DNA from: Candidatus Aenigmarchaeota archaeon CG_4_9_14_3_um_filter_37_18
Lineage (GTDB): Archaea > Aenigmatarchaeota > Aenigmatarchaeia > CG10238-14
NCBI GenBank assembly: GCA_002789635.1
Contig: PFTQ01000065.1
Span: forward strand, 1-42,205
Direction: 5' to 3'
Length of the DNA stretch: 42,205 bases
Below the pieces are notes generated by a model. It was not told the DNA's origin. It did no database searches and saw only the letters and a list, made by a program, of their open reading frames with translations. Below are positions 2,095 through 38,716 of the stretch, in pieces; the stretch's first letter is position 1, and every line of letters starts with the position of its first letter. Position numbers and translations under genes: made by a program.

Positions 2095-2115
2095 TCAAGG
2101 TTGAATATTATTCAT

Positions 2116-2190
2116 GGGTCCGTAGCTCAGTTTGGATAGAGCGGCAGCCTTCTAAGCTGAAGGTCGTGGGTTCGAATCCCATCGGGCCCA
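2116..2190 (+). tRNA. tRNA-Arg (anticodon TCT)
   Basis: Folded by hand into a 75-nt cloverleaf. Acceptor GGGTCCG/CGGGCCC, D arm GCTC..GAGC, anticodon loop CTTCTAA (TCT), T arm GTGGG-TTCGAAT-CCCAT, discriminator A. No intron and no encoded CCA. Confidence 0.93.
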
Positions 2191-2242
2191 TTAGGCATTC
2201 GCATTCAAGTCCCTAGAAGAATAAATAAAAGGGGATGAAATA

Positions 2243-3744: not shown

Positions 3745-4035
3745 TTCATCATTATATAACTCAGCGGATATTTTCATCTGCAAACACAGGCACTTGTCTT
3801 TAGAAAAAAAGCCGCAAATCCAAAAAGCGCTAAAAATACGGTTAAAAATCCTAAAAGCACTCAAATAAAAGTTTAAATACATGCTTCATATATTAATTTA
3901 GTTATTGCTTTCCAAAAGAGGGACAAAAAACAAAATGCAAAATATTATATTGGACAGTGATAGTGAGGAGCCTCCCGAGCGGTGCGGGGAGAACGAATAT
4001 AACCTATTTCTAAGCTTAGTTCGAGGTTATGCCTG

Positions 4036-6588: not shown

Positions 6589-7371
6589 ATGTCTATGCAG
6601 GAATTCTGGGAAGTAGTAAGGCAAGTCATAGAAGAGTCGAATGTAGTGATAGAAGTTCTCGACGCAAGGATGCCTCAGGAAACCCGAAACAGGAAGGCAG
6701 AGAAGATGGTTAAGCTTTATAGGAAGCCTCTGATCTTCGCAGTCAATAAAGCAGACCTCGTAAGGATGGGAACTGTGAGGGAGAATAGAAGGATTCTCGA
6801 GAAAGACGCCCCTTGTGTTTTTGTATGCACTAAGAACAGGCGCGGCATAACATTCCTGAAGAAGAAGATTTTTGAAATCGCTAAGAAAAGGTCCCGCAGG
6901 CGAATGCTGAGTGTTGGCGTTATTGGATACCCAAATACAGGAAAATCTTCCCTGATAAATGCACTTGCCGGCAGGAAAAAAGCTAAAGTCTCTCCTATCC
7001 CAGGGTTCACAAGAGGTGTTCAGTGGATAAGTGGCGGGCCTGATATAAGGCTGTTGGATACTCCTGGCGTTATCCCGCTGTCAGAAGAAGATAAGCTTAA
7101 ACAGGCTCTAACCGGTGTTTTGGATTCTTCAAGAGTTGAAGACCCAGAAGATGTTGCAAGAAGCATAATCAAAACTTTTCTGGAGAAAGACAAAAAAGCT
7201 TTCGAAAGGTTTTATGGGATTGAAGTCAAAACAAAAAGGTTTGATTTTATTATCAGCAAGCTAGGCAAGGCCAGAAACATGCTCAAGAAAGGCGGGATGA
7301 TTGATGAGAAGCGAGTCTACTTTATGATTATCAATGACTGGCAGAAGGGAAAGCTGCTGCTGAAAAAGTAA
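6589..7371 (+). CDS. Circularly permuted GTPase (YlqF/RbgA/Nug1-like ribosome-biogenesis GTPase)
   Basis: The G4 motif NKADL precedes the G1 motif GYPNTGKSSLINAL, and DTPG follows. This order is the permutation typical of the YlqF/YawG family. Confidence 0.85.
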   Translation: MSMQEFWEVVRQVIEESNVVIEVLDARMPQETRNRKAEKMVKLYRKPLIFAVNKADLVRMGTVRENRRILEKDAPCVFVCTKNRRGITFLKKKIFEIAKKRSRRRMLSVGVIGYPNTGKSSLINALAGRKKAKVSPIPGFTRGVQWISGGPDIRLLDTPGVIPLSEEDKLKQALTGVLDSSRVEDPEDVARSIIKTFLEKDKKAFERFYGIEVKTKRFDFIISKLGKARNMLKKGGMIDEKRVYFMIINDWQKGKLLLKK

Positions 7372-9322: not shown

Positions 9323-9362
9323 GATGACTCAGAAGATATAATAGTTTATTTTGGACTTTAAA

Positions 9363-11771
9363 TCACATTAAAGTAATTTCAACTCTTTCCTTCCCACCGC
9401 CTATGTTCTTTCTCTTCAACTTAATCTTTCCGATTTCAGAAGCATTTTTTACATGTGTTCCGCCGCAAGGCATTCCCCAGCTGCCGCACTTCCACCATCT
9501 TTTCTCGGGATCTTTTTTGTCAGGCTCTGACTTTATCTCCAATCCTTTTGCAATTGCTTCATTCGCTTCCTTCTCAATCTCAGGTATTATTTGTGTTATC
9601 GGCTTGTCATACAGAAAGTCTATCCTTGCTTTGTCTGGGTTTATGTTTGATCCGATAATTTTCGGCTTCCCAAGCTTTTCAACGAACGGGTAATAAACTA
9701 TATGTGCGGCTGAATGCAACTTCATCAGGTTGTATCTTCTTTCCCAGCCTAAGCTTAACTGGACAGTATCCCCTGTATTAAAATCAGGCTCTTTTTCAAG
9801 TATATGGACTATCTTATGATTAGCTTTCTTAACTTCAACAAGCGGTATTTCATTAATCGTTCCTCTGTCAGACGCCTGCCCTCCAGAGAACGCAAAGAAC
9901 AATGTTTTGTCAAGAATCACTTCTTTCCCATTGATTTCAATGACTTTAGCCTGCGCTTCTTTCATGTATGGGTCTTGGTAGAATAATCTTTCTGTGTCTA
10001 TTCTTTCAAATTCGACATCTCTTTTTTCTGGCGGTTTTTCAATTCCTTTCTCCTCAGCTAGCTTCACTTCACACTTCCCAGTTTTTGATGAAACTTCCTT
10101 CCCATTAATCAAGCCAAACAAAAGGTCAACGCAAATCTCTCCGCCAGCAGCAGGCATTTCTAATCCCCAGTTCTCAAGAACTTTAGGATTAATCTCGCCA
10201 AACCTTGCCAACACTTTCCCATTAACAACAAACTTTGCAGCCCTGCCAGTAATATAGCAAGGAGCATTTGATTCTTCAACTCCATAATCATTAACGCCAA
10301 CATTGCTTAGGATGCTCTCGACTAAAGATTTCATCTCGGAAAAATTCGCTTTAGAATGGCAAAGTGCAACAGCAAGCCTTTTCATTGATTTGTTTCCAAT
10401 ATCATTATCTTCCAGGGAGACTACATCTCCAACCTCAAACAAATTCTGCGGGTATTCATTGTGCTTATTTCTTGAAAGAACCTCGATCAGACTAGGCAGC
10501 AGCCAATTCCTGACAACATCATACTCGCTTGTCTTGGCATTAGCAGTTTCAGCAACAGGCTTAACATCCATGCACATTTTTTTGAAAAGGCTGTTTTTGT
10601 TTGAAAGAATGAATGTCACAACCTCCTGCATCCCATACCCGACAAGAAGCGAACGCAGTCTTGTGCAGAAGATTTCTTTCTCGTCTTCATCTCCAATCGT
10701 CGATATCTTCGGGATTTCAGGGTCGAATGCCTGATAGCCGTAAGCTATTGCCACATCCTCGACTATGTCTATGCCATGCATGATGTCTGTCCTGTAGCAG
10801 GGAGTTTTCACTTCAATCTTATCTTTTGTTACTTCTTCTGCATCATATCCCATTCTCTGGAGGCATTGGGTTATTTGTAGATTGGTTAGTATCAATCCGA
10901 GAAGCTTGTTGACGTAGTTTGGATTAATTGTGATTATTTTTGTTGATAAGTCAGGAGTGTAAACCATTCTGTCCTCGTATTTGATTTTTATTTTATGGAT
11001 TGCCGCCCCCCGGTCAGCAAAAGTGGTTGCGATTATATTCAGGACTTCATTCGCCGCTTTCTCATCTGTTGCTGTGATGTCGACGAAGATGTTTTTTGTG
11101 TTTTCTTCTACTTTCGTGTCTTCGGAGTTGATTATAGGCGGCATTGACAAGACTTTGCCTCGCCCGTCATGAAGCAGGGGATATTCTTTCATCCCTTCTA
11201 AGACCCAGGCATAATCCTTTCCTTTCGGCAATTCTTCGAGGATCTGCTGCAAGGTCATTTCTTCTTTCTGCTCCAAGGGAATGAATTTGAATTCTTTTGG
11301 TTTGGTTGTGTAGATGACTGGAAATGCAATCTTATCATAGTCATGCAGCCCTATCGCCACTTTCTTTCTTTTCCTGCAGTGGGTGATATGGAGTTTTTCT
11401 TGGACCTGCATTATTGACTTGATGAAATCATCTGTAAATTTGACATTTTTGATCACACACGAGACAAAGTATGGCCTTACCTTCGAGACTTTATCTTCTA
11501 TTATTACCATTTCTTCAGAGCCTTCCAGTTTGTACTTTCTTAAACCAGTTTTCACACCCATATAAGATGAGAATGCCCTTGCCAGACCCTCGACAGATAG
11601 CATGTCAGGCCTGTTTGGGAAGATTTCTACTGTGAATGTGTCTCCTTCTGACCCCTCCCATCCTGTTCCCATCATCGGGATATTTTCTTCTATTTGCTGC
11701 ATGGTGAAATCTTTTCCTACCAGCTGGCAAAAATCTTTTCTATCGATTGTTATTACTGCCATGATTACCAC
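9363..11771 (-). CDS. pheT: Phenylalanine--tRNA ligase beta subunit fused to a C-terminal AlaX-like editing domain
   Basis: Residues 1..~556 are a complete archaeal PheT and end in the usual ...GEINPKVLENWGLEMP..GEICVDLLF. Residues ~593..802 have the AlaX-M layout: LFYQDPY...FSGGQASDRG, HSAAH (9702..9716) and CGGTH (9453..9467). Confidence 0.9.
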   Translation of the reverse strand: MVIMAVITIDRKDFCQLVGKDFTMQQIEENIPMMGTGWEGSEGDTFTVEIFPNRPDMLSVEGLARAFSSYMGVKTGLRKYKLEGSEEMVIIEDKVSKVRPYFVSCVIKNVKFTDDFIKSIMQVQEKLHITHCRKRKKVAIGLHDYDKIAFPVIYTTKPKEFKFIPLEQKEEMTLQQILEELPKGKDYAWVLEGMKEYPLLHDGRGKVLSMPPIINSEDTKVEENTKNIFVDITATDEKAANEVLNIIATTFADRGAAIHKIKIKYEDRMVYTPDLSTKIITINPNYVNKLLGLILTNLQITQCLQRMGYDAEEVTKDKIEVKTPCYRTDIMHGIDIVEDVAIAYGYQAFDPEIPKISTIGDEDEKEIFCTRLRSLLVGYGMQEVVTFILSNKNSLFKKMCMDVKPVAETANAKTSEYDVVRNWLLPSLIEVLSRNKHNEYPQNLFEVGDVVSLEDNDIGNKSMKRLAVALCHSKANFSEMKSLVESILSNVGVNDYGVEESNAPCYITGRAAKFVVNGKVLARFGEINPKVLENWGLEMPAAGGEICVDLLFGLINGKEVSSKTGKCEVKLAEEKGIEKPPEKRDVEFERIDTERLFYQDPYMKEAQAKVIEINGKEVILDKTLFFAFSGGQASDRGTINEIPLVEVKKANHKIVHILEKEPDFNTGDTVQLSLGWERRYNLMKLHSAAHIVYYPFVEKLGKPKIIGSNINPDKARIDFLYDKPITQIIPEIEKEANEAIAKGLEIKSEPDKKDPEKRWWKCGSWGMPCGGTHVKNASEIGKIKLKRKNIGGGKERVEITLM

Positions 11772-12412
11772 ACATCCTCCTCGGTTGCTAGGAAGTCTTT
11801 GCGTTTTTTAAGAGTATTTTTGAGTTCCTTGCTAAAATCTTTGTTTTTTTCAATACCATTATTATCGATATCTGATGCCTCTTTTGTATAGAACTCAGAA
11901 TTTCTAATATCTGCATATGACATAAAAGTTTCTACTGATTTCTTTAAATCGTAACCAAATTCATAAGAAGCTCTAACCATAGGAAAAAGACTTAATAAAT
12001 CGCTTTTTTCAAGCTTATCTGCATCAAAAAGTATCTTTGCCTCAATGGTTTGAGGTTTAATTTTCGACTTAGTTTCACTATGTGAAGCTATGCAATGCGC
12101 GATTTGTCTGATTTCATCATTATTAAATCCGAATTTTGGGAGATCTCTCTCTGCAATTTTTGGCCCAGTTTCATTGTGTTTCCAGTAATCACCTTCTGTT
12201 GCTCCGATGTCATGCAAAAGAACAGCAGGAACGAGAACAGAATAATTGACTCCTTTCTCTGTGTCAGCAATCATTAATGTCCTGAATAAATCGCGGATGA
12301 TGTGCTCAAAATTGTGCTGTGGTAAGTCAGCCTGATCATACTTCTTCTTCGCATAATCATAGACCTTCTTTATTCTCGGGTCTTTTTTTGTTAGTTCTGT
12401 TAGTTTCCTCAT
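11765..12412 (-). CDS. HD-domain metal-dependent phosphohydrolase
   Basis: HNFEH ... LLHDIG ... H ... D pattern. Its stop overlaps the pheT start by 7 nt. Confidence 0.82.
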   Translation of the reverse strand: MRKLTELTKKDPRIKKVYDYAKKKYDQADLPQHNFEHIIRDLFRTLMIADTEKGVNYSVLVPAVLLHDIGATEGDYWKHNETGPKIAERDLPKFGFNNDEIRQIAHCIASHSETKSKIKPQTIEAKILFDADKLEKSDLLSLFPMVRASYEFGYDLKKSVETFMSYADIRNSEFYTKEASDIDNNGIEKNKDFSKELKNTLKKRKDFLATEEDVW

Positions 12413-12459: not shown

Positions 12460-12690
12460 TTAAACAAGAATATAATAGATATTTTTCCCATATCCCCCCC
12501 TATTTATTATTTTTTCCTCTAACAAATTATCAATATCTCTAAAAGCCGAATTTTTGGAAGCATTTGCCAATCCACAAATCTCTTCAACAATTCTATTTGA
12601 ATCTGACAAAGAGCTTTTTAACTCTAGAAATTCCGACTCTCCTTTTTTAATAATATCTGAAATGTTGATTTTACTCATACACCCAACCAC
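12460..12690 (-). pseudogene. Possible internally deleted remnant of an AlbA_2 (Schlafen-like)/HTH regulator gene
   Basis: The N-terminal 30 aa (GESEFLELKSSLSD..IVEEICGLANA) look like the start of an AlbA_2 domain. The C-terminal 30 aa (FRDIDNLLEEKIINRGGYGKNIYYIL) look like the terminal wHTH of such proteins. The several hundred residues normally between the two are missing. Confidence 0.3.
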
Positions 12691-14189
12691 ATTTGCGCTT
12701 CCCTTAGCTGTTTTAAATCTGATAAGTACAACTTTCTGATATCATCCACTTTATATTTGTCCATGATTATTCTATCAAACCCTAATCCCCAAGCAAGAAC
12801 CGGGACATCTTTTCCTAGCAACGGCTTAACAACCTCTGGCCTGAATATACCTGACCCCCCCAACTCCATCCACTGCTTATGAGCAGGATGCCATACTTCT
12901 ACTTCAAGGCTCATCTCTGTGTATGGAAAGTATCCTGGTCTAAACCTCGTCTTTGGGAATCCCATTTTTTCAAAAAATCTTCTTAGGTAGCCCTGCAGCT
13001 GTCGAAAGGTTACGTCTTCACCAACAACTATTCCTTCTGTCTGGTAGAATTCAGCAAGATGTTTCCAATCCAAAGTCTCGTTTCTGAAGCATCGACCTAC
13101 AGCAAAATATTTCACAGGTAAGTCTTCCGACTTTAATTTCGCAATTGTTCTCGCGGATAAAGATGTAGTATGAGTCCTTAAGACACATCTCCTCGCAAAT
13201 TCAGGATTCCATTTGTACTGCCACCCTAATGATCCAGTGTCCCAACCATTCTCGTGTGTGAGCTTAACCTTCTCAACTAATTGATTGTCTGGCAACTTCC
13301 CTTTCTCAGGTATTTTCATGTAGAATGTATCTGCCAAATCTCGGGCAGGATGATCCTGAGGCTGGAACAAGGAATCAAAATTCCAGAATGATATGTCCAA
13401 CAATGGGCCAGTCATCTCTTTGAACCCCATGTCAGTCCATATGCCACGGATGTACTCGATGATTTGGGTTATGTAGTGTTTTTTTCCAGGGTTGATTTTT
13501 GTTGACGGCAAAGTAACGTCATATGGGCGAATGAGCTGTGTTTTCCACAATTTCTCCTTTAGGATTTCTGTCGTCAACTGACCTATTTCGTCCTTTATCA
13601 CAAGCTTCGGAAGAATTTTTTTTCCTAGGTCTGTCAGGAATATTTCCCGCTTTTTTTTGACCTTTCTCTTGATCAGCCCTCTTTTCTCAAGGTTTTCTAA
13701 TGATGACCTGTCGGATAGCTTTGGCATTTGCTCATGGTTTTTCAGGCTAATGAGTATTTTTTCTTCTGGCAGCTGCTCTTTTGTTGCTTTGCTTCCTTTA
13801 GATGTCAATTCCAGCTGCCCTTTCTTGATTACAACCCAGTTGTTTTTCTTGACCCAGACCAAGCCTATATCGAATTTCTTGAGTTTTTTTTTCAATTCAA
13901 GAATAGATATTTCCCCATCCTCGACAAGTTTCAGAAGGTTTTTTTCTGGGAGGCCATGCTCAGCATATTCTTCGCCTTCTTTTGTTAATTCCAAAGTTTC
14001 AGACGTCTCCTCGTCTATTTTTAAGACGCCTTTCACTTTTGCCCATAAGGATGCTTTCTCGATTGAGTCCTTATTTAATCCTGTCTCATGCTCGAGCTCT
14101 TGGATTGTCAAGGATTTCTTGCCTTCTAACGCTTTTAGGATTCTTTTTTCGTGGGTATGCAGTCGATTGAGCAGCTCTTTGTCATTCAT
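12675..14189 (-). CDS. pheS: Phenylalanine--tRNA ligase alpha subunit (archaeal type)
   Basis: N-terminal winged-helix repeats followed by the class II core (HPARD, FRNE, GLGFDR). Confidence 0.92.
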   Translation of the reverse strand: MNDKELLNRLHTHEKRILKALEGKKSLTIQELEHETGLNKDSIEKASLWAKVKGVLKIDEETSETLELTKEGEEYAEHGLPEKNLLKLVEDGEISILELKKKLKKFDIGLVWVKKNNWVVIKKGQLELTSKGSKATKEQLPEEKILISLKNHEQMPKLSDRSSLENLEKRGLIKRKVKKKREIFLTDLGKKILPKLVIKDEIGQLTTEILKEKLWKTQLIRPYDVTLPSTKINPGKKHYITQIIEYIRGIWTDMGFKEMTGPLLDISFWNFDSLFQPQDHPARDLADTFYMKIPEKGKLPDNQLVEKVKLTHENGWDTGSLGWQYKWNPEFARRCVLRTHTTSLSARTIAKLKSEDLPVKYFAVGRCFRNETLDWKHLAEFYQTEGIVVGEDVTFRQLQGYLRRFFEKMGFPKTRFRPGYFPYTEMSLEVEVWHPAHKQWMELGGSGIFRPEVVKPLLGKDVPVLAWGLGFDRIIMDKYKVDDIRKLYLSDLKQLREAQMWLGV

Positions 14190-14310
14190 TACTATCCTCT
14201 CTTAATGGTTTAGTTTTAGGAGTAGAAAAAACTTCGGTTGCAGTTAGCGTAGAAATTGGAAGGGCATCACGTTCACTAAGAGTAATATTGGTAGGTTAGG
14301 CTTAAGTAAC

Positions 14311-14604
14311 TTACAGAAAATAAGCGTTTTCTAATTCAATTCTTGTAATGCCGAGATAATTGCATGTGAGGTCTATTTGTCGGTCTAAAACTCCTTGAAA
14401 ACCAAATCTGAGTCCTTGGACAAGCAGATTCCCATCTTCAGCAAATATAGAATAAAACACATCTAAAGCTTGTTGAAATGTATGTTGACTCGAACTTGTA
14501 GACGTATATTGGCTTATGGTATTTACCCATCTTCTGGCTTCTCTTTCATACCATGTCCAGTTTTCTATTCGAATTGGCAATGAGTTTGGCATTGAGTTTA
14601 CCAA
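14311..14604 (-). CDS. Hypothetical protein
   Basis: ORF located 27 nt downstream of the wHTH gene on the same strand. No family was recognised. Confidence 0.45.
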   Translation of the reverse strand: MVNSMPNSLPIRIENWTWYEREARRWVNTISQYTSTSSSQHTFQQALDVFYSIFAEDGNLLVQGLRFGFQGVLDRQIDLTCNYLGITRIELENAYFL

Positions 14605-14631
14605 TGGGAAAAAAACGATTAATACTTTATT

Positions 14632-14967
14632 TTACAATCTAGCCGCAACTGGCTTCATAATATTGTTTCTTTTTGGTTCAATCTCCTGCAGGCTAACCTT
14701 CATTTCTATTTCCATTACCTTTTTCACAATAGGCGACTGTAAGTTGATTTTATAGAGCTGTGTTCTGTTGATTTTTCTTGTTTTCACAACCAAGCCCCAT
14801 TTAATGAATTTATCCCATATTTTGTACAGTGTCGGCCTTGTTATGCCGGCGCCCTTAGCTATGTCAGTTTTTGTGTAGTCAAATATATTATTATCTAAAA
14901 GAAAGTCGAAAACTCTAAGAGCAGGTGTTCTTCCAAAAATTCCAATCATTATAGAGTCCTGTTCCAT
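14632..14967 (-). CDS. Winged helix-turn-helix transcriptional regulator
   Basis: ALRVFDFLL....YTKTDIAKGAGITRPTLYKIWDKFIKWGLV is a typical archaeal wHTH. Confidence 0.7.
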   Translation of the reverse strand: MEQDSIMIGIFGRTPALRVFDFLLDNNIFDYTKTDIAKGAGITRPTLYKIWDKFIKWGLVVKTRKINRTQLYKINLQSPIVKKVMEIEMKVSLQEIEPKRNNIMKPVAARL

Positions 14968-15062
14968 AGGATATTCTTGAAAAAGCTAGTATAAATATTT
15001 TTACTTTTATTGTAAAATTTAATTTACATATTTTTTATATTAAAGATAAACAAATTTAATAT

Positions 15063-15329
15063 ATGAGAGAAGAAGAAAGGGCCTGGATTCTGTTCAAATT
15101 ATTAAGGCATTGGGGTGGAAAACACACAAGTCTTGACAATCTTCCAAAAGGCCAGCCTAAGAATGTAGCGAAGCAGATAAAAGAAGCCTGCAAAGAAATG
15201 ATAAAAGACGGTTTGATACTTTCTAAACCCACCCATTACGGATTGGAAATATCGCTTAATCCTAGAAGGAAAAAAGAAATAATTGAAATTGTATCGAAAT
15301 ATTATGATATTCCTTTCGATATTTTTTAG
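15063..15329 (+). CDS. Hypothetical small protein
   Basis: ORF diverging from the wHTH gene across a very AT-rich 95-bp spacer. No family was recognised. Confidence 0.45.
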   Translation: MREEERAWILFKLLRHWGGKHTSLDNLPKGQPKNVAKQIKEACKEMIKDGLILSKPTHYGLEISLNPRRKKEIIEIVSKYYDIPFDIF

Positions 15330-15333
15330 GCTG

Positions 15334-16455
15334 TTAATCCCTTACAATAAAATCGTCCAGCCTGTCTTTAGCCTTTTCCCGCCTTTCCTGAAACCCTTTC
15401 AGGTACTCATTCAACTTGTCCACCAGAATCTGCTTCAACTCCCCTGTCAGCATCTTGCCAGACTTGTAGTCGTCGTAGATTTTCTTCAGCCTTTCATCGC
15501 TCTCCTCAAAGAATGCAAGCCATTGGTAGGAAACATCTATATCAGGATTGCCTCCGAACTTCCTGTGCTCCTCAACATTCCTCGCTCCGCCAGAGAACGC
15601 GTGCTTCATTACTTTCTCGCGGACAGCTTTCGGTGTGTCTGTAGTGAATATGCATGTCGATTCCACAGATGAGGACATCTTTCCCTCCTCTGACATCCCT
15701 TGCAGCCCTGGCAAAAACCTTCCATGTATTTGTGCGGGCTTGTAATAGCCTAACTTTTCAGCTACATCCCTTGCCATCCTCCAGTAATTATCTTGGTCGA
15801 TTGATGCTGGGATAAGGACAGGTATGTTCTTCCCGTTCAATTCAGATGGAAGAAAGCAGGGGACAGTCTGGATCGCAGGGAAAAACGTAATCCCGATGTT
15901 CGAGCTGTCTGTGAAGCCGAATATTGATTTTGCTGTCGAGAGCGTGGTTTTCTTCGCAACTTTTAACGCAATCTTGTATTGCGTCTTGATGTAATCAATA
16001 TCTGAGAATATGTGCGTTTTCTTCGGCTTGAATCCGACTGCTATAACGTCTAATGCATTCTCATACGCTGTTTTATTCACTTCCTCAAGCGGCTTGTCCT
16101 TGATCAGGAATTTCTCGTCATCAGTCATCTGAAACCAAAGCTCAGTGTCAAATTTATCCTGCAGCCATTTTGTGAATATCCACGGGACTAAATGCCCTAG
16201 ATGAACCTTGCCGGAAGGGCCTCTGCCTGTGTAGAGATGGAATTTCTCGCCTTTCTCGTATTTGTCAAGTATCCAGTTCATATCCCTATGTGAGAAGTAT
16301 ATTCCTCGCCTTAAAAAGTGATGCAATTCTCCTGTATGTTTCTTGATCCTTTTGAGGAGTTTCTCGTCGATTTTTTCAGTGCCGAAGTCCTTGATCAGTT
16401 TATCATAATCTACGTTCCCTTTGACTTCCCATGGTGTTACAACAAATTCAGCCAT
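15334..16455 (-). CDS. trpS: Tryptophan--tRNA ligase (archaeal/eukaryotic type)
   Basis: N-terminal VTPWEV.G.VDYDKLI.DFG, a HIGH-like GKVHLGHL and a KMSKS-like KMSSS. Confidence 0.9.
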   Translation of the reverse strand: MAEFVVTPWEVKGNVDYDKLIKDFGTEKIDEKLLKRIKKHTGELHHFLRRGIYFSHRDMNWILDKYEKGEKFHLYTGRGPSGKVHLGHLVPWIFTKWLQDKFDTELWFQMTDDEKFLIKDKPLEEVNKTAYENALDVIAVGFKPKKTHIFSDIDYIKTQYKIALKVAKKTTLSTAKSIFGFTDSSNIGITFFPAIQTVPCFLPSELNGKNIPVLIPASIDQDNYWRMARDVAEKLGYYKPAQIHGRFLPGLQGMSEEGKMSSSVESTCIFTTDTPKAVREKVMKHAFSGGARNVEEHRKFGGNPDIDVSYQWLAFFEESDERLKKIYDDYKSGKMLTGELKQILVDKLNEYLKGFQERREKAKDRLDDFIVRD

Positions 16456-16953
16456 TCACTCACTCTCATATATTATTGGTTTTTCTATCAACTTAAGCAA
16501 ATCTCCTGCATGGATTTTGACTGTTTTTGAATGGTTTCCAGGGTTGAAGTACAGGTAATCGAACCCTAACAATTCTTTGTCAAGGTAAGTTTTTATTTTA
16601 TTCCTGTGGCCGAAGGGTGGAACGCAGCCTATCGGGCAGCCGACTAGTCTCTCGACATCTTTCGGTTTTGCTAATAGAATTTCTTTCGTTACTTCCAGCT
16701 CCGCAATTTTACTTGTTTGGATTTTTTTATTTCCTGGACCTAGGACTACTATGAATTTCCCTTCAGTTGTTTCAAAGAGCAGGTTTTTTATCCCGCAGTT
16801 GTTTGAGTCCTCGTTGATTTTCTCCATTATTTTTCTGGTTTTATCGGCGGCTTCGCATGTGTAGACTGGATCATGGTCAAACTCCTTGTAGTCTATTCCC
16901 TTGCCTTTAAGCAACTGCTTGATTTTGTTCTCAATGAATGTCATAATTATCAC
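16456..16953 (-). CDS. YbaK/ProX-family aminoacyl-tRNA deacylase (trans-editing protein)
   Basis: Has the size and motifs of the YbaK/ProX fold (GCPIGCVPPFGH, YFNPG). Its stop codon directly abuts the trpS start. Confidence 0.8.
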   Translation of the reverse strand: MIIMTFIENKIKQLLKGKGIDYKEFDHDPVYTCEAADKTRKIMEKINEDSNNCGIKNLLFETTEGKFIVVLGPGNKKIQTSKIAELEVTKEILLAKPKDVERLVGCPIGCVPPFGHRNKIKTYLDKELLGFDYLYFNPGNHSKTVKIHAGDLLKLIEKPIIYESE

Positions 16954-23572: not shown

Positions 23573-24808
23573 GTGATGAAGTTCGCTGAAAAAATAGACC
23601 CAAAAACAATCCCTGAAATCAATATTGGATTATTTGGCCATGTTGATCATGGTAAAACCACACTTACCCAAGCTATAACAGGCAAGATGACAGACACTCA
23701 TTCTGAGGAGATTAAGAGGGGTATTTCAATAAGGCTAGGCTATGCGGATGTAAGCATCTACAGATGCTCTAAATGCAAAGCATACTGCACAAGCAAGAAA
23801 TGCCCTAAATGTTTTGAAGACTGCAAAATTCAAAGGACAATATCTTTTATAGACGCCCCTGGCCACGAAAGCCTTATGGCAACTGTCCTAACAGGGTCTG
23901 CTATAATAGATGGGGCTATACTTGTCATTGCAGCGAATGAAAAATGCCCTTCCCCGCAGACATATGAGCATTTAACTTCTCTAGATGTGGTCGGAATCAA
24001 AAAAATAATCATTGTTCAAAATAAGATAGATATCGTTGACCAAGAAAGAATAAAAGCAAGCTACAAGGAAATCAAAGAATTTGTGAAAGGCACTATTGCT
24101 GAGAATGCTCCTATAATACCTGTTTCTGCAATGAGAGGGGTGAATATAGAGTATATCATCGAAGCTATGGAAAACAGCATTCCTACCCCAAAAAGAGACT
24201 TAACCAAAGATCCAAAGATGTATGTAGCTAGAAGCTTTGACATCAACAAGCCTGGCTCTGGGGTTGATAAACTGGTTGGGGGAGTAATTGGAGGCTCAAT
24301 AGTTGATGGAAAGCTTAAAAAGGGACAGGAAATAGAGTTAAAGCCTGGTATAAGAATCGGGGAATCATGGAAAATAATAACAACAAAGATAGTATCATTA
24401 GAAAAGGCTGGCAAGAAGCTGGAAGAGGCTGAAGCTGGCGGGCTGTTGGGTATATTAACAGAATTGGACCCATTCTTGGCGAAGGCTGATGGTTTAGTCG
24501 GAAATATAGTAGGCCTTCCAGGAAAACTGCCTGAAATAAGGAACAAGATAACTCTGAATATAAACCTATTAGAAAGGGTTGTTGGAACAAAAGAAGAGAT
24601 GAAAATGCAGAACATCCGGTTTAATGAGCCCTTAATGATCAACATTGGGACAGGCAGGTCGGTTGGGGTGGTTACAAAAATCAGGGGAAAGGATATTGAG
24701 ATGGATCTCAAGCTGCCTATCTGCGCTGATGCCGGGGAAAGAATTGTCCTGTCCCGCCAAGTCATGGGAAGATGGAGACTAATCGGGTATGGTATACTGA
24801 AAGGTTAG
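23573..24808 (+). CDS. eif2g: Translation initiation factor aIF2 gamma subunit
   Basis: GHVDHGKTTL, the zinc knuckle CSKCKAYCTSKKCPKC, DAPGH and NKID. The start is either GTG 23573 or ATG 23576, immediately after the S6e stop. Confidence 0.93.
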   Translation: MMKFAEKIDPKTIPEINIGLFGHVDHGKTTLTQAITGKMTDTHSEEIKRGISIRLGYADVSIYRCSKCKAYCTSKKCPKCFEDCKIQRTISFIDAPGHESLMATVLTGSAIIDGAILVIAANEKCPSPQTYEHLTSLDVVGIKKIIIVQNKIDIVDQERIKASYKEIKEFVKGTIAENAPIIPVSAMRGVNIEYIIEAMENSIPTPKRDLTKDPKMYVARSFDINKPGSGVDKLVGGVIGGSIVDGKLKKGQEIELKPGIRIGESWKIITTKIVSLEKAGKKLEEAEAGGLLGILTELDPFLAKADGLVGNIVGLPGKLPEIRNKITLNINLLERVVGTKEEMKMQNIRFNEPLMINIGTGRSVGVVTKIRGKDIEMDLKLPICADAGERIVLSRQVMGRWRLIGYGILKG

Positions 24809-25322: not shown

Positions 25323-25715
25323 ATGCCAATAAAAATCATGAAGATTATCATCTTAGACACAAACTTCCTGACAATCCCGTTCCAATTCGGATTGGATATC
25401 TTCAAAGAAATAGACGAGCTAATAGGCGAGGAGCATGAAACAGCAACAATAGACCAGGTAGTAAGAGAGCTTGAGAGCCTTTCAAAAGGCAGAAGCAATA
25501 ATTCAACAGCCGCAAGGATAGGCTTGGAGCTGATAAAGAAAAGACAAGTAAAAATCATTAAAACAAAAGGAAAGAATGCAGACGATGAGATAGTAGAATT
25601 ATCCAACGACAAGACAATAGTAGCAACAAACGATAAAGAATTAATTAATAGACTAAAGAATAAAAATATTAAAGTAATTTATTTAAGAGGTAAAAGTCGC
25701 TTAAATATGAGGTGA
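25323..25715 (+). CDS. PIN-domain ribonuclease (Fcf1/Utp24-like)
   Basis: IILDTNFL ... DDEIVELS ... VATNDKELINRLK, in the conserved position after aIF2-gamma. Confidence 0.8.
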   Translation: MPIKIMKIIILDTNFLTIPFQFGLDIFKEIDELIGEEHETATIDQVVRELESLSKGRSNNSTAARIGLELIKKRQVKIIKTKGKNADDEIVELSNDKTIVATNDKELINRLKNKNIKVIYLRGKSRLNMR

Positions 25716-27769
25716 AAATGTTGATAAATGGCTTGGCAATTAGTTTCATTTCAGCTTTTATTGCATTAGGGTATGCATTCTATTTAGCAATAGGGATAAA
25801 CAAACATAAGATCGGAAATAAAAAAATGAAGGATATATACGAAGCTATAAGGGAAGGATCTAAAGCCTATCTAAAAAGGCAGTACAAGACTATTATCTAT
25901 ATTTCAGTTGTTTTAGCGGTTTTACTCTATTTTGCGTTTGATTTTTCAGGGAACAAATTTCCCTACACATCTTTAGCATTCACTCTAGGCGCTATCTGCT
26001 CGTTAGTTGCAGGATATGTTGGGATGGATGTAGCAACAAAAGCTAATGCAAGAACAGCCTACGCTGGATTGAAAGGAATCAATGAACCAGTCCAAATCGC
26101 TTTTAGAGGCGGGTTGGTTATGGGCTTGTTCAATGTAGGAATGTCTTTACTTGGTGTGTCTGCATTATTCTACTTCTACGACTCTAACCCACACATGATT
26201 ATTGGTTTTGGGTTTGGAGCCAGCCTGTCTGCGTTATTTGCCCAGCTTGGTGGTGGAATCTTCACAAAAGCCGCGGATGTCGGGGCGGATTTGGTTGGAA
26301 AGGTTGAAGCTGGCATTCCAGAAGACGATCCAAGAAACCCAGCAGTTATTGCAGATAATGTTGGCGATAATGTCGGGGATATTGCAGGCAGGGGTGCAGA
26401 CCTTTTTGAGTCATTAACCGGGGAAAATATCGGGGCGATGATAGTAGGATTATCATTATACGCGCTGACAAAAAATTTCTTTTTTGTCTTATTTCCGCTT
26501 CTGGCTAGGAGTGTTGGAATATTCGGAACTATATTCGGCGTCCCGTTTGTTAAAGTGAAAGGGGGGGAAGACCCTATGCGCGGGCTGACAAGAGGTGTTA
26601 TAGCGACAACTTTGTTCTGTATAGTTGGCTTCTATTTTCTGATTAGATTCACTTTGCATAATGTCAACCTATTTTATGCAGGCATGGTCGGTCTGGTCGC
26701 AAGCATTGTAATGATCCTGATAACAGAATACTACACATCAAAGAAGTATAAGCCTGTCAGGGATATAGCAGAAGCGTCTAAAACAGGCCATGCAACAAAC
26801 ATAATCACAGGATTTGCAACAGGCCTTGAAAGCACAGCTTTGCCAGTTATCGTAATATCAATTGCCATTCTTATATCATACTACTTTGGGACTATATTTG
26901 CAGCTCAGGCTAATATAGATAGTTTCATTGGGGGCATATATGGGACAGCTGTTGCAACTATGGGAATGCTATCAATAGCTGGCATGGTTCTTGGATTGGA
27001 TGGTTTTGGGCCTATTGTCGACAATGCAGGCGGCATTGTTGAGATGTCTGGGGGAAGCAGTAAACTGAGAAAAATTACTGATTCTTTAGATTCAGCAGGG
27101 AACACTACCAAAGCATTAACAAAAGGTTATGCGATGGCTTCTGCTGGTTTGGCTGCATTATTGTTGTTCCAAGCATATCTGGAAGTCACTAAAATAACTG
27201 TTGTTGATATAGTTGTCCCGAAGATAATTGTCGGGTTGTTTATCGGGTGTTTGTTGCCGTTTATTTTTGCTTCATTCGCGATCAGGGCTGTGGGAAAAGC
27301 AGCTTTCAAGATGGTTGAGGAGGTAAGAAGGCAGTTCAAAGAAATACCTGGAATAATGACGGGCAAAGCAAAGCCAGACTATTCAAAATGCATTGAAATA
27401 AGCACAGTTGCTGCCCAGAAGGAGATGATCCTGCCTGGGTTGATACCAATAGCCGTCCCGATATTGATTGGGTTCACTTTAGGGGCTGAGGCCGTCGGGG
27501 CATTGCTTATAGGCGCAACCTTGACTGGGTTTATTTTGGCGATGATGATGAACACAGGGGGGGCAGCCTGGGATAATGCCAAGAAATACATAGAAGACGG
27601 ATTCTTGGGTGGAAAGGGATCTGAGGCTCATAAAGCCGCGGTAACCGGAGATACTGTCGGAGACCCATTCAAAGATACAGCAGGCCCATCACTTCATGTG
27701 CTAGTAAAACTATTAAATACTATATGCCTAACATTTGGTATGCTGTTTGTGCTGCATGCATTGTTGTGA
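25712..27769 (+). CDS. hppA: Membrane-bound H+-translocating pyrophosphatase, K+-independent type
   Basis: Canonical V-PPase motifs (DNVGDNVGD, GGAWDNAKK, GDTVGDP). GNTTKA has Lys (codon 27110..27112) where K+-dependent enzymes have Ala. Confidence 0.95.
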   Translation: MKMLINGLAISFISAFIALGYAFYLAIGINKHKIGNKKMKDIYEAIREGSKAYLKRQYKTIIYISVVLAVLLYFAFDFSGNKFPYTSLAFTLGAICSLVAGYVGMDVATKANARTAYAGLKGINEPVQIAFRGGLVMGLFNVGMSLLGVSALFYFYDSNPHMIIGFGFGASLSALFAQLGGGIFTKAADVGADLVGKVEAGIPEDDPRNPAVIADNVGDNVGDIAGRGADLFESLTGENIGAMIVGLSLYALTKNFFFVLFPLLARSVGIFGTIFGVPFVKVKGGEDPMRGLTRGVIATTLFCIVGFYFLIRFTLHNVNLFYAGMVGLVASIVMILITEYYTSKKYKPVRDIAEASKTGHATNIITGFATGLESTALPVIVISIAILISYYFGTIFAAQANIDSFIGGIYGTAVATMGMLSIAGMVLGLDGFGPIVDNAGGIVEMSGGSSKLRKITDSLDSAGNTTKALTKGYAMASAGLAALLLFQAYLEVTKITVVDIVVPKIIVGLFIGCLLPFIFASFAIRAVGKAAFKMVEEVRRQFKEIPGIMTGKAKPDYSKCIEISTVAAQKEMILPGLIPIAVPILIGFTLGAEAVGALLIGATLTGFILAMMMNTGGAAWDNAKKYIEDGFLGGKGSEAHKAAVTGDTVGDPFKDTAGPSLHVLVKLLNTICLTFGMLFVLHALL

Positions 27770-34115: not shown

Positions 34116-35891
34116 ATGACAAGGATAGCAATAATCAACCGAGAGCTATGCAAGAAGGATAAATGCGGGTACCTATGCAAGAAAGTATGCCCCATCAACC
34201 GGACAAACGAAGAATGCATAGTCGTAGATGAGAAGACTGGATTTCCAATCATCGACGAGGGCTTATGCATAGGCTGCGGTCTATGCGTGAGCAAATGCGA
34301 CAAAGCCGAGTACAAGGCTATTCATGTGGTCAACCTCCCTGAACAACTCAAGGAAAGCCCTATCCACCGTTTTGGCAAGAACCAATTCATCCTTTACAGG
34401 CTGCCATTTCCCAGCCCTGGAAAGATCGTGGGCCTGGTCGGGTCGAACGGTCTTGGAAAAACGACAGCATTGGAAATACTTTCTGGCCAGCTTAAGCCTA
34501 ATCTTGGAGGGGAAAAAGAGTCCAGCATATCTGAAGTGGTCAAGATGTACAGGGGAACAGAGCTGCAGAACTATCTTGAAAGACTAGAAAACAAACAGAT
34601 GAGAGTCTCCTACAAGCTTCAGCGGGTCGACAAAATACCATCCGCATTCAAGGGAAAAGTCTCAAAACTCCTTGAAAAAACAGATGAGCGCGGCATCTTG
34701 AATGACTTAACAAAAAGGTTTGATATTGAAAGAATCCTGGACAATGATATCGATAAAATATCCGGAGGAGAATTGCAAAGAGTGGCAATAACAGCCTCGC
34801 TGGCAAAAGACGCTGATATCTACTATTTTGACGAGCCTACTAGTTTTCTTGATGTTTTCCAAAGATTAGAAGTTTCAAAGACTATTCGCGAACTTTGCAA
34901 AGACAAGTCAGTTATAGTTGTTGATCATGATTTGGCAACATTGGATTTTCTTGCTGACAACATCCATATCTTCTACGGTGTGCCTGGTATTTATGGGATA
35001 GTTTCGGTTCCTTACTCAGTCAGGGTTGGGATTAATGCATTTTTAGATGGTTATATCAAAGAGGACAATGTAAGAATGAGGAAAGAATCTATTCACTTTC
35101 AGTCAACATTCATTGAACAGCAAGGTGGGATAGAACAGATAATAAGCTTTGAGAATATTAAAAAGAAACTTGGTAATTTTGAATTAACTGTAAAGGGCGG
35201 AGAGCTTTACAGACAGGAAGTGCTTGGGATATTGGGTGCTAACGCTCTAGGAAAAACAACTCTTGCGAGAATTCTGGCTGGAGAAATTAAATCAGACAGT
35301 GGTAAGATAAATGGTAAAATAAAGATTTCTTACAAATCCCAATATCCAAAAACAGATTTTGATGGGACTATACGTGAACTCCTAAAATCAGTAACAAATG
35401 AATTTGGAACAAGTGATTATAAATCAAGAATACTTCGACCTCTTGGCTTAGACAAACTCCTTGAAAAAAATGTTAACAAGCTTTCAGGAGGAGAGTTACA
35501 ACGTGTGGCAGTGGCTGTCTCCTTAAGCAAAAAATCTGATGTCTATCTTTTGGATGAACCTTCGGCTTTCATGGATGTAGAACAAAGGCTAAACCTTGCA
35601 AAAATGATAAGAAATCTGGTTGAGAAAGATGAGACCTCGGCTTTAATAATTGACCATGATCTTTTATTTTTAAGCCAGATTTCAGATAAGGCAATGGTGT
35701 TTCTTGGAAAACCAGGAAAACAAGGTTATACAGAAGAGCCAGAATCAGTTGAAAATGCATTTAATAGATTTTTAGAACAAGTTCAGGTCACCTTCAGGAA
35801 AGATTCCCAAACAGGAAGACCTAGGGCAAATAAATTGGAATCACAAATGGATCAAGAACAAAAAAGTAAAGGGAAATACTTCATGAGTTAA
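34116..35891 (+). CDS. abce1: ABCE1 / RNase L inhibitor-type ribosome-recycling ATPase
   Basis: N-terminal 4Fe-4S ferredoxin Cys clusters (CPINR, CIGCGLC) plus two ABC cassettes (GSNGLGKTT, LSGGELQR x2). Confidence 0.95.
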   Translation: MTRIAIINRELCKKDKCGYLCKKVCPINRTNEECIVVDEKTGFPIIDEGLCIGCGLCVSKCDKAEYKAIHVVNLPEQLKESPIHRFGKNQFILYRLPFPSPGKIVGLVGSNGLGKTTALEILSGQLKPNLGGEKESSISEVVKMYRGTELQNYLERLENKQMRVSYKLQRVDKIPSAFKGKVSKLLEKTDERGILNDLTKRFDIERILDNDIDKISGGELQRVAITASLAKDADIYYFDEPTSFLDVFQRLEVSKTIRELCKDKSVIVVDHDLATLDFLADNIHIFYGVPGIYGIVSVPYSVRVGINAFLDGYIKEDNVRMRKESIHFQSTFIEQQGGIEQIISFENIKKKLGNFELTVKGGELYRQEVLGILGANALGKTTLARILAGEIKSDSGKINGKIKISYKSQYPKTDFDGTIRELLKSVTNEFGTSDYKSRILRPLGLDKLLEKNVNKLSGGELQRVAVAVSLSKKSDVYLLDEPSAFMDVEQRLNLAKMIRNLVEKDETSALIIDHDLLFLSQISDKAMVFLGKPGKQGYTEEPESVENAFNRFLEQVQVTFRKDSQTGRPRANKLESQMDQEQKSKGKYFMS

Positions 35892-35928: not shown

Positions 35929-36318
35929 ATGTTTAAAAGAGGTGTGGGAATGAGTATTTTAGTTTTAATTCTAATCAGTGTGAGTTTAGGTGCAGTTGGA
36001 CAATCTTTACTTAAATATGGTTTAGATTCAATGGGAAAACTAGTTTTAAAAGACCTATTAGTTTTGAAGAATTTGATATCTTTTGCAACGAATATTTTCA
36101 TCATAGGCGGTTTATCACTTTATGTTCTCGCTACTGGTATTTGGTTTGTTGTGCTGTCAAATGCAGATATAAGTTATGCATATCCACTAGTTAGTTTGGG
36201 TTATATAATAACTGCAGTAATTGGTAGGTTTGTTTTTAATGAGAATTTAACAGTAATGAGAATAACTGGAATCGGTTTAATAATAGCAGGTGCTTATTTA
36301 GTTGGCTCGAAAATTTAG
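35929..36318 (+). CDS. Small EamA/SMR-like membrane transporter (ArnE/ArnF-like candidate flippase subunit)
   Basis: About 120 aa with four hydrophobic helices and an EamA-type ending (RITGIGLIIAGAYLV). The true start may be the ATG at 35950. Confidence 0.6.
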   Translation: MFKRGVGMSILVLILISVSLGAVGQSLLKYGLDSMGKLVLKDLLVLKNLISFATNIFIIGGLSLYVLATGIWFVVLSNADISYAYPLVSLGYIITAVIGRFVFNENLTVMRITGIGLIIAGAYLVGSKI

Positions 36319-37828
36319 AAAAAATATTATAAAAAAAACTCAAGAAATAGCTCCGTTTTTAATTTTATCAACAATGATTTTAGGATATTTTTTGGTTTTA
36401 AATATTCTTAGTATAGATAACTTGAACAGATTTAAGTACTCTGCTTTTGATATAGGTATATTCGATCAGGGAGTTTGGTTATTAAGCACTTTTGAAAAAG
36501 CTTTTGTTACAGTAAGAGGTTTACATATATTTGGTGATCATCTACAATTCATTCTTTTGTTTGTCACTCCATTTTACTGGATATGGAATAATATAAGGTT
36601 TTTGTTGATATTACAAACTTTTGGTTTAGCTATTGGAGCTGTCCCGATATATCTTTTAGCCAAACAAAAATTGAAAAATAAGTGGCTACCTTTAATATTT
36701 TCTTTTTGTTATTTAATGTACCCTGCTCTTCATTATCTTAATTTAGAAAATTTTCATCCATCTGCATTAGCTGTACCAATGATAATATTTTCATTTTATT
36801 TTCTAGAGAATAAGAAGTATAAACCTTTTTTAACATTTCTTTTTTTAGCTTTAATTTGTAAAGAAGAAATAGTAATAACTGCTTTTTTTATGGGGATTTA
36901 CACTTTTTTTAAACATAATAAGAAACTTGGCATTTCTATCTGTTTATTTTCTCTTATCTGGTTATTTTTAGTTTTCAAAGTCATACTTCCATTTTATAAT
37001 GATTTTGGTTATATCCATGTTGGATATGGTGCATTCGGGGAATTTGGAAAAAGTCCAACAGAAGCTATTTTTAATATGATAAAAAATCCAGCAAAAGTCG
37101 TCCAAAAAATAGCGACTGAACAAAATATTGAATATATTATAGATTTGTTTTTACCTACTGGATTTCTTTCTTTCTTTAGTCCAATAATCTTATTTTTAAG
37201 TTCTCCAGCAATATTTTTAAATTTAATTACTGGCTGGCCTTATGCACATTCTATTCAATATCACTATACAATTGCAATCATCCCTTTCATTTTCTTTTCC
37301 CTAATTTATGGATTTTCTTGGGTTAGAAAAAAAACAATGAAAATCAAAAAATATAATTTAAATAAAATTATACCCGTAATATTCATGGTAATTTTTTTAG
37401 TTTCTACAATCTATGGAAGTTTTGAGATAGATCACTACGATACATCAATCAGAAATATTGATAAACTTTTCAAATATAAAATAGGAGAATTTTTCAAAAA
37501 ACAGGAAAATGACAAAATTAGATATGAAGCTATATCTCTTATACCAGATAATACTTCAGTTTCAGCATCTTATCTATTACTTCCACATTTAACACATAGA
37601 AAAATAATTTACATGTTCCCAAATCCATTTGAAGAGTCTTATTGGGGTCTAATGTATGGAAATTTTACTCCATCTACACCAACTCTTGTTACTGATTACA
37701 TAATTGTAGATGATACTGTTAGTGATTCTGAAAAAGAAAGTATAATAGACCCATTCATAAATCAAAACCTGTATGAGGTTATTTTCAACGAGACTAACGT
37801 GATTGTCCTTAAAAAAACCTTGAATTAA
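36302..37828 (+). CDS. DUF2079-family polytopic membrane protein (GT-C-like putative glycosyltransferase)
   Basis: FDIGIFDQGVWLLS motif near the first loop and many TM helices. The TTG start at 36302 overlaps the preceding gene. Confidence 0.75.
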   Translation: MARKFRKNIIKKTQEIAPFLILSTMILGYFLVLNILSIDNLNRFKYSAFDIGIFDQGVWLLSTFEKAFVTVRGLHIFGDHLQFILLFVTPFYWIWNNIRFLLILQTFGLAIGAVPIYLLAKQKLKNKWLPLIFSFCYLMYPALHYLNLENFHPSALAVPMIIFSFYFLENKKYKPFLTFLFLALICKEEIVITAFFMGIYTFFKHNKKLGISICLFSLIWLFLVFKVILPFYNDFGYIHVGYGAFGEFGKSPTEAIFNMIKNPAKVVQKIATEQNIEYIIDLFLPTGFLSFFSPIILFLSSPAIFLNLITGWPYAHSIQYHYTIAIIPFIFFSLIYGFSWVRKKTMKIKKYNLNKIIPVIFMVIFLVSTIYGSFEIDHYDTSIRNIDKLFKYKIGEFFKKQENDKIRYEAISLIPDNTSVSASYLLLPHLTHRKIIYMFPNPFEESYWGLMYGNFTPSTPTLVTDYIIVDDTVSDSEKESIIDPFINQNLYEVIFNETNVIVLKKTLN

Positions 37829-38014
37829 AACTAGGTATTACTATGAGAAATGGAAAAGAACTTAAAAAAATAGCAATTGAATTTAGTATTTTGATTTTTT
37901 GATCATTTTATCATTTGGTCTCTTGAATGTTATGTTTGAGATAAAACCTTCCAGAAGTATTTTATTGCCAATATTATTTTTAATTTCTTTATTTGTAAAA
38001 AAATGTCAAGAAAA

Positions 38015-38662
38015 TCATCTCAACCCAAATTTAAGTTCAAAAATATATCTTATTATCCTGAATGCTTCTGAAGCTGAAGATGTTGGTTTACCAGCCTTTC
38101 TTTTCTCAAAAACTATCGGAACCTCATAAATTTTATAGCCTTTCTTTTTTGCTTTATACATTATTTCTAGGTTTATTTTAAAACCAAGTGGGTTAATTCT
38201 CAAATTATCATAAACTTCTCTTTTGATTGCAGCAAAACCCGACATATTATCTTTTATCTTTAACCCAAGAACTAAAGAAGCAAAGTTTCTGTATACCCAA
38301 CTAATTAACCTTCTATGTGTTTTGTCATTTGTTAACCCACCTTTCACAAATCTTGATCCAATAACTATATCAAAACTATTAATTTTTTTTAGCAATTTTA
38401 GTATATCTTCTGGTCTATGACTAAAATCTCCATCAATAGTTACTATAACATCCCCTTTTGCGTGATTAAGTCCTTCCATTATAGCATTCCCAAGTCCTTT
38501 GGATTTTTGTTTTATCACTTTTGCCCCGGGAATCTCTTCAATTTCTCCAAACTCTACTATAATAACTTCATGATCTAGGCTTTTCAGATTTTTATGAATT
38601 TCATATGTCAGTTCCCTCAAAAGTGGTTCATTTTTTGATGGTATTAAAACTGATATTTTCAT
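38015..38662 (-). CDS. GT2 glycosyltransferase, Dpm1/ArnC-like polyprenyl-phosphate sugar synthase
   Basis: ISVLIPSKNE, DGDFSHRPEDI, about 215 aa and no TM domain. Confidence 0.82.
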   Translation of the reverse strand: MKISVLIPSKNEPLLRELTYEIHKNLKSLDHEVIIVEFGEIEEIPGAKVIKQKSKGLGNAIMEGLNHAKGDVIVTIDGDFSHRPEDILKLLKKINSFDIVIGSRFVKGGLTNDKTHRRLISWVYRNFASLVLGLKIKDNMSGFAAIKREVYDNLRINPLGFKINLEIMYKAKKKGYKIYEVPIVFEKRKAGKPTSSASEAFRIIRYIFELKFGLR

Positions 38663-38716
38663 GGGAATATATAGTTTATAATAACTTTTAAGCTTTATTG
38701 TATATTAATAATTATT

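Follow-up and report, generated by a model that had tools for sequence, protein, structure and literature searches.

Phenylalanyl-tRNA synthetase (PheRS) is a textbook example of a synthetase that has an editing site of its own, and the textbook factor for correcting errors of alanyl-tRNA synthetase (AlaRS) in trans is AlaX. Review passages on AlaX present it only as a free-standing protein or as a domain of AlaRS and threonyl-tRNA synthetase (ThrRS) (PMC11580382, PMC11295145). Tryptophanyl-tRNA synthetase (TrpRS) of Plasmodium carries an appended AlaX-like domain, which is a distant AlaX homologue (PMC3240968). The bacterial phosphoseryl-tRNA synthetase SepRS is fused to a ThrRS-type editing domain, and the CCA end has been proposed to shuttle between the sites (PMC8762117). 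Here we describe a gene in which an AlaX module follows a complete PheRS beta subunit (PheT) in a single reading frame. The gene lies on contig PFTQ01000065.1 of Candidatus Aenigmarchaeota archaeon CG_4_9_14_3_um_filter_37_18, a groundwater DPANN archaeon, and the 42,205 nucleotides analysed are referred to as the window. Full-text searches of the published literature found no description of a PheRS-AlaX fusion, and an earlier note made from the letters of the window likewise knew of none. The gene combines known domains in an undescribed way and has an unusually informative natural history. Its features are the following, in window positions and in residues of the 802-residue frame.

9363..11771, minus strand: open reading frame of the pheT-alaX fusion, 802 amino acids from a GTG at 11771, with the stop codon at 9363..9365

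10104..11762, minus strand: complete PheRS beta core of archaeal/eukaryal type, residues 4-556, with B1, B3/B4, B5 and the catalytic-like module (TIGR00471, Pfam)

Residues 37-71: PhetRS_B1 domain (Pfam)

11058..11423, minus strand: B3/B4 editing domain, residues 117-238 (Pfam PF03483, B3_4)

10734..10934, minus strand: B5 domain, residues 280-346 (Pfam PF03484, E 1.4e-25)

10134..10715, minus strand: catalytic-like module of PheRS beta (tRNA_synthFbeta), residues 353-546 (Pfam PF17759, E 7.7e-38)

9996..10103, minus strand: linker, residues 557-592, K/E-rich, 19 of 36 residues charged (53%) (AlphaFold model, alignment)

9366..9995, minus strand: AlaX-M module, residues 593-802, an N-terminal beta-barrel and a Zn-dependent editing core without a C-Ala domain

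9966..9986, minus strand: LFYQDPY, motif of the barrel

9861..9890, minus strand: FSGGQASDRG, Gly-rich loop of the barrel, residues 628-637

9702..9716, minus strand: HSAAH, first Zn-binding motif (H686, H690), aligned with H564 and H568 of Escherichia coli AlaRS

9453..9467, minus strand: CGGTH, second Zn-binding motif (C769, H773), aligned with C666 and H670 of E. coli AlaRS

9384..9386, minus strand: Arg796 in the last strand (GKERVEI), at alignment position R207, which is invariant among 12 modules

The PheT part is complete, since its match to the NCBIfam model pheT_arch (TIGR00471) runs nearly end to end. Residues 4-549 cover model positions 1-548 of 551 with 580.2 bits against a cutoff of 282.65. 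The core also matches human PheRS beta (3L4G_B, E 5e-82) and the Pyrococcus horikoshii subunit (2CXI, E 3e-75). Normal PheT proteins of related archaea have 551-565 amino acids and end at about residue 555, whereas the window protein runs 246 residues further. The B3/B4 site for the editing of Tyr-tRNA(Phe) is apparently intact. In the alignment to 2CXI, residues L200, S209, N215, D231 and T233 stand opposite P. horikoshii L202, S211, N217, D234 and T236, and we take L202, S211, D234 and T236 to be B3/B4 editing-site residues of PheRS. P. horikoshii N217 is a named editing-site residue (PMC3275996). The other fusion types described below keep the B3/B4 residues save for conservative changes (D231 to E, T233 to S, and S209 to C in one), of which the change of D231 to E is a state also found in human PheRS beta. 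Retention of the editing residues in all fusion types rules out AlaX as a replacement for a dead B3/B4 site. With B3/B4 intact, there are therefore two editing modules on one enzyme.

The C-terminal 246 residues match AlaX-M of P. horikoshii over the whole length (2E1B, E 9.8e-41) and the AlaX-M chain of P. furiosus (9IUW, E 1.8e-40). Past PheT, Pfam profiles recognise the barrel part of the AlaRS model tRNA-synt_2c at residues 568-677 and tRNA_SAD at residues 768-798. The module modelled alone has a predicted local distance difference test (pLDDT) score of 93.3, and Foldseek aligns it with 9IUW and 2E1B over the full length at a template modelling (TM) score of 0.93 and a root-mean-square deviation of 1.4-1.8 Å. 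It belongs to the AlaX-M fold and architecture class and lies outside the curated set of the NCBIfam AlaXM equivalog NF040865, where it scores 174-179 bits in two stretches against a cutoff of 300. Twelve modules, which differ by up to 53%, all share H686, H690, C769, H773, the GGQxxD loop and the Thr of DKT, and in the Gly-rich loop G41, G42, Q43, D46 and G48 (alignment numbering) are likewise invariant. The first Gly of the GGGQxxDxG pattern is Ser here, likewise in free AlaX-M of DPANN archaea and bacteria. The protein terminates 29 residues past CGGTH. Judged by its residues, the module appears to be a complete AlaX-M-type aminoacyl-tRNA deacylase with all catalytic residues present. In the last strand, the MAFFT alignment places R796 opposite R694 of E. 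coli AlaRS and E795 opposite R693, so that R796 is a candidate equivalent of the reported G3:U70 determinant. The relevant passage of one review ascribes the G3:U70 specificity for tRNA(Ala) to 'a single Arg' and gives no position for it (PMC11295145).

The linker between the two parts is predicted to be a flexible, disordered tether. In the full-length AlphaFold model, residues 559-589 have a pLDDT below 50 and are without secondary structure. Both flanking parts fold confidently and the predicted TM score of the whole chain is only 0.47, therefore no fixed docking is predicted. Across homologues the linker has 35-55 residues, varies in length and is poorly conserved. The domain organisation put forward in the earlier note, namely a complete PheT with the usual C-terminus, a charged stretch of about 36 residues as linker and a 210-residue AlaX/tRNA_SAD module with barrel, HxxxH and CxxxH, agrees with the profiles and models at each point. 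The coordinates given there for HSAAH, CGGTH, LFYQDPY and FSGGQASDRG are exact. Its proposal of two proofreading modules on one synthetase is likewise borne out at the level of sequence, with unchanged B3/B4 residues and invariant AlaX catalytic residues.

The fusion is real and recurs in related archaea. Single contigs from four separately assembled runs span positions 9300-11900 and are free of differences, indels and joints. These assembler contigs, rather than raw reads, are the evidence for continuity of the frame, and they carry no stop, indel or joint across 9990..10110, where the earlier note had wished to exclude a lost stop codon. The stretch 9300-10600 is contained in 23 groundwater/aquifer metagenome runs, 21 of them at 100% and two at 99% of sampled words. 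PheT and AlaX are joined in one protein in 15 protein clusters of 786-807 amino acids from JGI, NCBI, ENA, Logan and Tara. Where given, the names on these clusters are Aenigmarchaeota or Woesearchaeota, and the database annotation is simply PheT. A stop codon lost by sequencing error, or two genes joined by an assembler, would find its sole support in one relative that does have a stop inside the linker (L082, see below). Given the identical sequence in four independent run assemblies, the recovery from 23 runs and the open frame repeated in 15 clusters, an artefact is effectively refuted already. The frame opens with a GTG, and the true start is probably the ATG at 11762, giving 799 amino acids, because homologues open with MAVIT or MPVIT.

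The fusion is passed on within a small clade of Aenigmarchaeota. In a scan of one genome per species, one of the best 80 AlaX matches was fused to PheT (L001, an Aenigmatarchaeota metagenome-assembled genome). The other DPANN loci encode free AlaX-M of 215-257 amino acids with 47-61% identity, and bacterial free forms have about 40%. In the PheT tree, all seven fusions of the Aenigmarchaeota type (C1) fall into a clade of 13 rows with a support of 100. Five unfused PheT proteins, 76-83% identical to the window core, are interleaved with them, as is one split form, and the fusion is present in the basal members. For C1, a single gain with at least three later losses and one split makes the most parsimonious history. 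L081 and L083, which are unfused, share their gene order (pheS, a small gene, pheT and then MinD), and no AlaX remnants were found at either locus. The fusion is evolutionarily labile, and the link between PheT and AlaX is not essential, because PheT of 76-83% identity occurs without AlaX or its remnants.

The split form may retain traces of how the fusion arose. In L082, a pheT of 576 amino acids retains the first 20 linker residues and ends in a single TAA, which is followed in-frame by an alaX of 219 amino acids. The tblastn alignment continues straight across the TAA. Ahead of this alaX stands AAAGGTGAT-TTT-ATG, which is a Shine-Dalgarno-like site (GGTGAT) with a start codon (6729..6760). 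The fused sister gene in L001 retains AAAGGTGAT-GAT-ATG and reads it as K-G-D-D-M (around 3970..4000). The linker in the window has lost both the Shine-Dalgarno-like site and the ATG. Since the site and ATG of L082 persist as coding sequence in L001, we suggest that the fusion probably arose by loss of the stop codon between pheT and a directly downstream alaX in a pheT-alaX operon. Set against this origin, the L082 split could instead be a later nonsense mutation, and its stop rests on one JGI contig. Adjacency of pheT and alaX is specific to the C1 lineage. A simple stop loss between neighbouring genes in other DPANN archaea was rejected, as free alaX never adjoins pheT in 19 DPANN loci. The linker DNA of L001, with GGTGAT and ATG, might also offer an internal start for free AlaX besides the fusion protein.

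A second group of C-terminal fusions (C2) is of the Woesearchaeota type and adjoins the L34e-SecY cluster. The PheT cores of C2 and C1 share 37-45% identity (about 41%), whereas the AlaX modules share 60-78% (about 69%). Within C1, mean identity is 77% for the core versus 70% for AlaX. The modules of C1 and C2 and the split gene form one clade in the AlaX tree (14 rows, support 100), in which C2 branches among C1 rows. The block of high identity opens at EFExIxTERLFY, the exact start of the split alaX frame. C1 and C2 are thus closer in AlaX (69% identity) than in the cores (41%), so an alaX-sized unit moved between lineages and came to rest again at the PheT C-terminus. Transfer of a whole pheT-alaX gene from C1 to C2 was rejected, as the C2 cores lie outside the clade (support 100) with 59 unfused Aenigmarchaeota/Bathyarchaeia PheT.

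By analogy with free AlaX-M, we favour a role for AlaX on PheRS as a trans-editor of Ser-tRNA(Ala) and Gly-tRNA(Ala), and on balance we consider this role probable. Two AlaX modules would hang on flexible tethers from the (alpha-beta)2 PheRS. As Zn-dependent hydrolases, they would act in trans on the Ser-tRNA(Ala) and Gly-tRNA(Ala) released by AlaRS, while the PheRS core would charge tRNA(Phe) and clear Tyr-tRNA(Phe) via B3/B4. The gain from fusion would then be co-expression, a fixed stoichiometry and a place beside the translation machinery in a reduced genome, with no new specificity for PheRS. Such generic tethering agrees with the finding of close AlaX-M relatives on lysyl-tRNA synthetase (LysRS) as well. 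The 150 top representatives of the AlaX profile include proteins with AlaX at the C-terminus of class I LysRS (P0210, P0216) and of class II LysRS (P0262, P0282). A further LysRS (P0017, L087 103..3018) has an extra bacterial-type B3/4 domain followed by AlaX, on a contig with an archaeal Cdc6-like gene.

Several observations weigh against trans-editing by generic tethering. The AlaX hosts seen, PheT and both LysRS classes, are few and no random sample of synthetases. The association with PheT also recurs more than generic tethering predicts. In P0015 and P0016, an AlaX that is 53% identical to that of the window is inserted inside B3/B4, after the equivalent of residue ~167. Both proteins end at the normal PheT terminus and are sister to C2 in the PheT tree. 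P0201 is a third C-terminal PheT fusion with a more distant AlaX (44% identical). AlaX occurs on PheT in at least three architectures. The sole free-standing member of the C1/C2 AlaX clade is the split gene of L082, in-frame and directly downstream of pheT. To these points come the NF040865 score below the cutoff and the search for RNA runs containing the stretch, which found none. The free AlaX tree places the three PheT-linked AlaX groups apart, but one clade for all three is not rejected by the approximately unbiased (AU) test (p = 0.112). Independent origins are not upheld by the AlaX tree alone. As this phylogeny is not decisive, the independence of the joinings rests on their differing positions and backbones. 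In P0277 (718 amino acids), the N-terminal 156 residues are AlaX-like (E 9e-41 to the profile) and the remainder is without a Pfam match at E <1e-4.

The recurrence on PheT could mean that AlaX proofreads for PheRS itself. AlaX would then act on the 3' end of tRNA(Phe) on, or leaving, PheRS, as a second cis-like editing site that clears mischarged species beyond B3/B4, e.g., a small amino acid on tRNA(Phe). We regard this as possible but unlikely. The ~36-residue tether could reach the PheRS active sites, and AlaX joined PheT in three architectures (C-terminal in C1 and C2, C-terminal in P0201, and inside B3/B4). The near absence of free-standing members from the C1/C2 clade and the contrast between module and core identities, with a module that moved yet is on PheT again, fit such a role. 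The joint presence of B3/4 and AlaX on the LysRS P0017 fits as well. However, the AlaX pocket does not differ in its residues from that of free DPANN AlaX-M, the intact B3/B4 leaves nothing to be replaced, and close relatives manage without the module. LysRS of both classes carry the same kind of module, and a single origin of all PheT-linked AlaX is not rejected (AU p = 0.11). We know of no mischarging of tRNA(Phe) with Ser or Gly by PheRS, which also counts against this role. That the AlaX lineage is a dedicated PheRS partner rather than a passenger, with selection repeatedly bringing AlaX-M to the beta subunit, seems doubtful to us. Tentatively, its cases would be the C-terminus in two archaeal phyla, with a module that moves laterally, the inside of B3/B4 in a third lineage and, in a fourth, a neighbouring gene coupled in translation. 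AlaX would then clear a mischarged tRNA(Phe) or pass tRNA on in a manner not open to B3/B4.

The earlier note had also raised compensation for an AlaRS that lacks editing. AlaRS would be split or without a working editing domain, and both Ser-tRNA(Ala) and Gly-tRNA(Ala) would be edited solely by the PheT-borne AlaX. Its fusion to an essential gene would protect AlaX from loss, which makes this a special case of trans-editing rather than a contradiction to it. DPANN genomes are reduced, and P0284 (509 amino acids) is an example from such organisms of an AlaRS in more than one piece. P0284 is limited to the C-terminal portion of AlaRS, with the middle and the editing region and without the catalytic domain, reminiscent of the split Nanoarchaeum AlaRS. 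Close relatives lost the module though, so it is hardly indispensable, and we consider compensation quite improbable. A non-catalytic appendage, with AlaX as only an extra tRNA-binding or assembly domain of PheRS, appears very unlikely. Archaeal PheRS beta lacks B2 and B8 of the bacterial subunit, barrels of the AlaX type bind acceptor stems of tRNA, and the module takes the place of nothing else in the gene. Nevertheless, fusions with up to 53% sequence difference show no variation at the four Zn ligands, in the Gly-rich loop or at the conserved Thr. This counts against a purely structural role, which would not need them. Trans-editing of Ser-tRNA(Ala) and Gly-tRNA(Ala) stays our preferred role for the tethered module.

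The surroundings of the fusion gene contain the partner subunit and some ordinary neighbours.

12675..14189, minus strand: pheS, PheRS alpha of 504 amino acids and partner of the fusion protein, upstream with one small gene between

11765..12412, minus strand: HD-domain gene between pheS and pheT (Pfam HD, E 6e-9), with its stop 2 nucleotides before the pheT ATG

L081 2156..2572, L083 2166..2951 and L084 8703..10013 (C2 lineage): slot between pheS and pheT in relatives

25712..27769: H+-pyrophosphatase

34116..35891: ABCE1/RLI

23573..24808: aIF2-gamma

2115..2191: tRNA-Arg(TCT)

The scan of the relatives' proteins covered pheS orthologues at their loci, which are 72-83% identical by tblastn and carry Pfam tRNA-synt_2d. 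The slot between pheS and pheT varies, with an HD hydrolase in the window, a NUDIX gene, an inositol-monophosphatase family gene or, in the C2 lineage, a LAGLIDADG-like frame in relatives, and nothing in L082. No alaS was found within the 42-kb window, and a homologue search seeded with P0020 yielded AlaRS of Desulfurococcales only. A YbaK/ProX-type tRNA_edit gene (165 amino acids) ends exactly at the start of trpS (373 amino acids) in the window (15334..16953, minus strand), and the same pair lies upstream of pheS in L082 (1197..2806). The pair adds, within the same 8 kb, a second case of an editing factor that is coupled to a synthetase other than its cognate one. Directly downstream of the C2-type pheT-alaX of L084 lies an array of 14 tRNAs with an HNH endonuclease gene inside (13141..15364). 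The ARAGORN calls in this array are irregular. Several have unusual acceptor stems, and one tRNA-Phe(GAA), 86 nucleotides in length, is drawn with a long extra arm that may be an unmodelled intron. The acceptor stems were dropped as a specificity clue owing to these irregular calls. At 36000..42205 of the window, G+C is 0.27-0.28 versus 0.35-0.43 elsewhere, and the genes encode large membrane proteins (DUF2079, PTPS-related).

The fusion provides a natural system for asking whether tethered trans-editing factors work better at the translation machinery. Fused, split, inserted and lost forms constitute a natural series for comparative tests. The findings also hint that archaea with tiny genomes might arrange the quality control of translation by attaching editing modules to a small number of synthetases. 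If AlaX did proofread for PheRS, this would be a new editing pathway for a well-studied enzyme. If the AlaX lineage were a dedicated partner, ultra-small archaea and bacteria would have a second, so far undescribed route of proofreading for PheRS and, by analogy, for LysRS.

Among known systems, free AlaX-M (type II AlaXp; P. horikoshii PH0108, 2E1B, and P. furiosus, 9IUW) has the same barrel and editing core without C-Ala. It shows 36-45% identity over the whole length, a TM score of 0.93 and the same HxxxH/CxxxH Zn site and Gly-rich loop. Unlike free AlaX-M, the window module forms the C-terminus of PheRS beta and follows a disordered linker, and it is known here from sequence. The cis-editing domain of AlaRS has a homologous core and barrel, and its Zn ligands in E. 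coli (H564, H568, C666 and H670) align with those of the module, whereas the window protein is without the AlaRS aminoacylation domain and without C-Ala. P. horikoshii PheRS beta (2CXI) and human PheRS beta (3L4G chain B) share the domain set and B3/B4 residues of the window PheT, which has pheS close upstream on the same strand. The difference from a normal archaeal PheT of 551-565 residues lies in the 246 extra residues; the earlier note had suggested such a comparison of lengths. Plasmodium TrpRS likewise carries an AlaX-type trans-editing module on a synthetase for another amino acid. TrpRS is a class I enzyme of a eukaryote with a distant AlaX though, whereas the window combines an archaeal PheRS beta with a full AlaX-M. 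The SepRS fusion likewise couples a heterologous Ser-editing domain, by a short linker, to a synthetase of the PheRS family, and SepRS is the closest relative of PheRS. It differs from the pheT-alaX fusion in the archaeal ThrRS editing domain (DTD-like) fold, in its N-terminal fusion and in its bacterial hosts.

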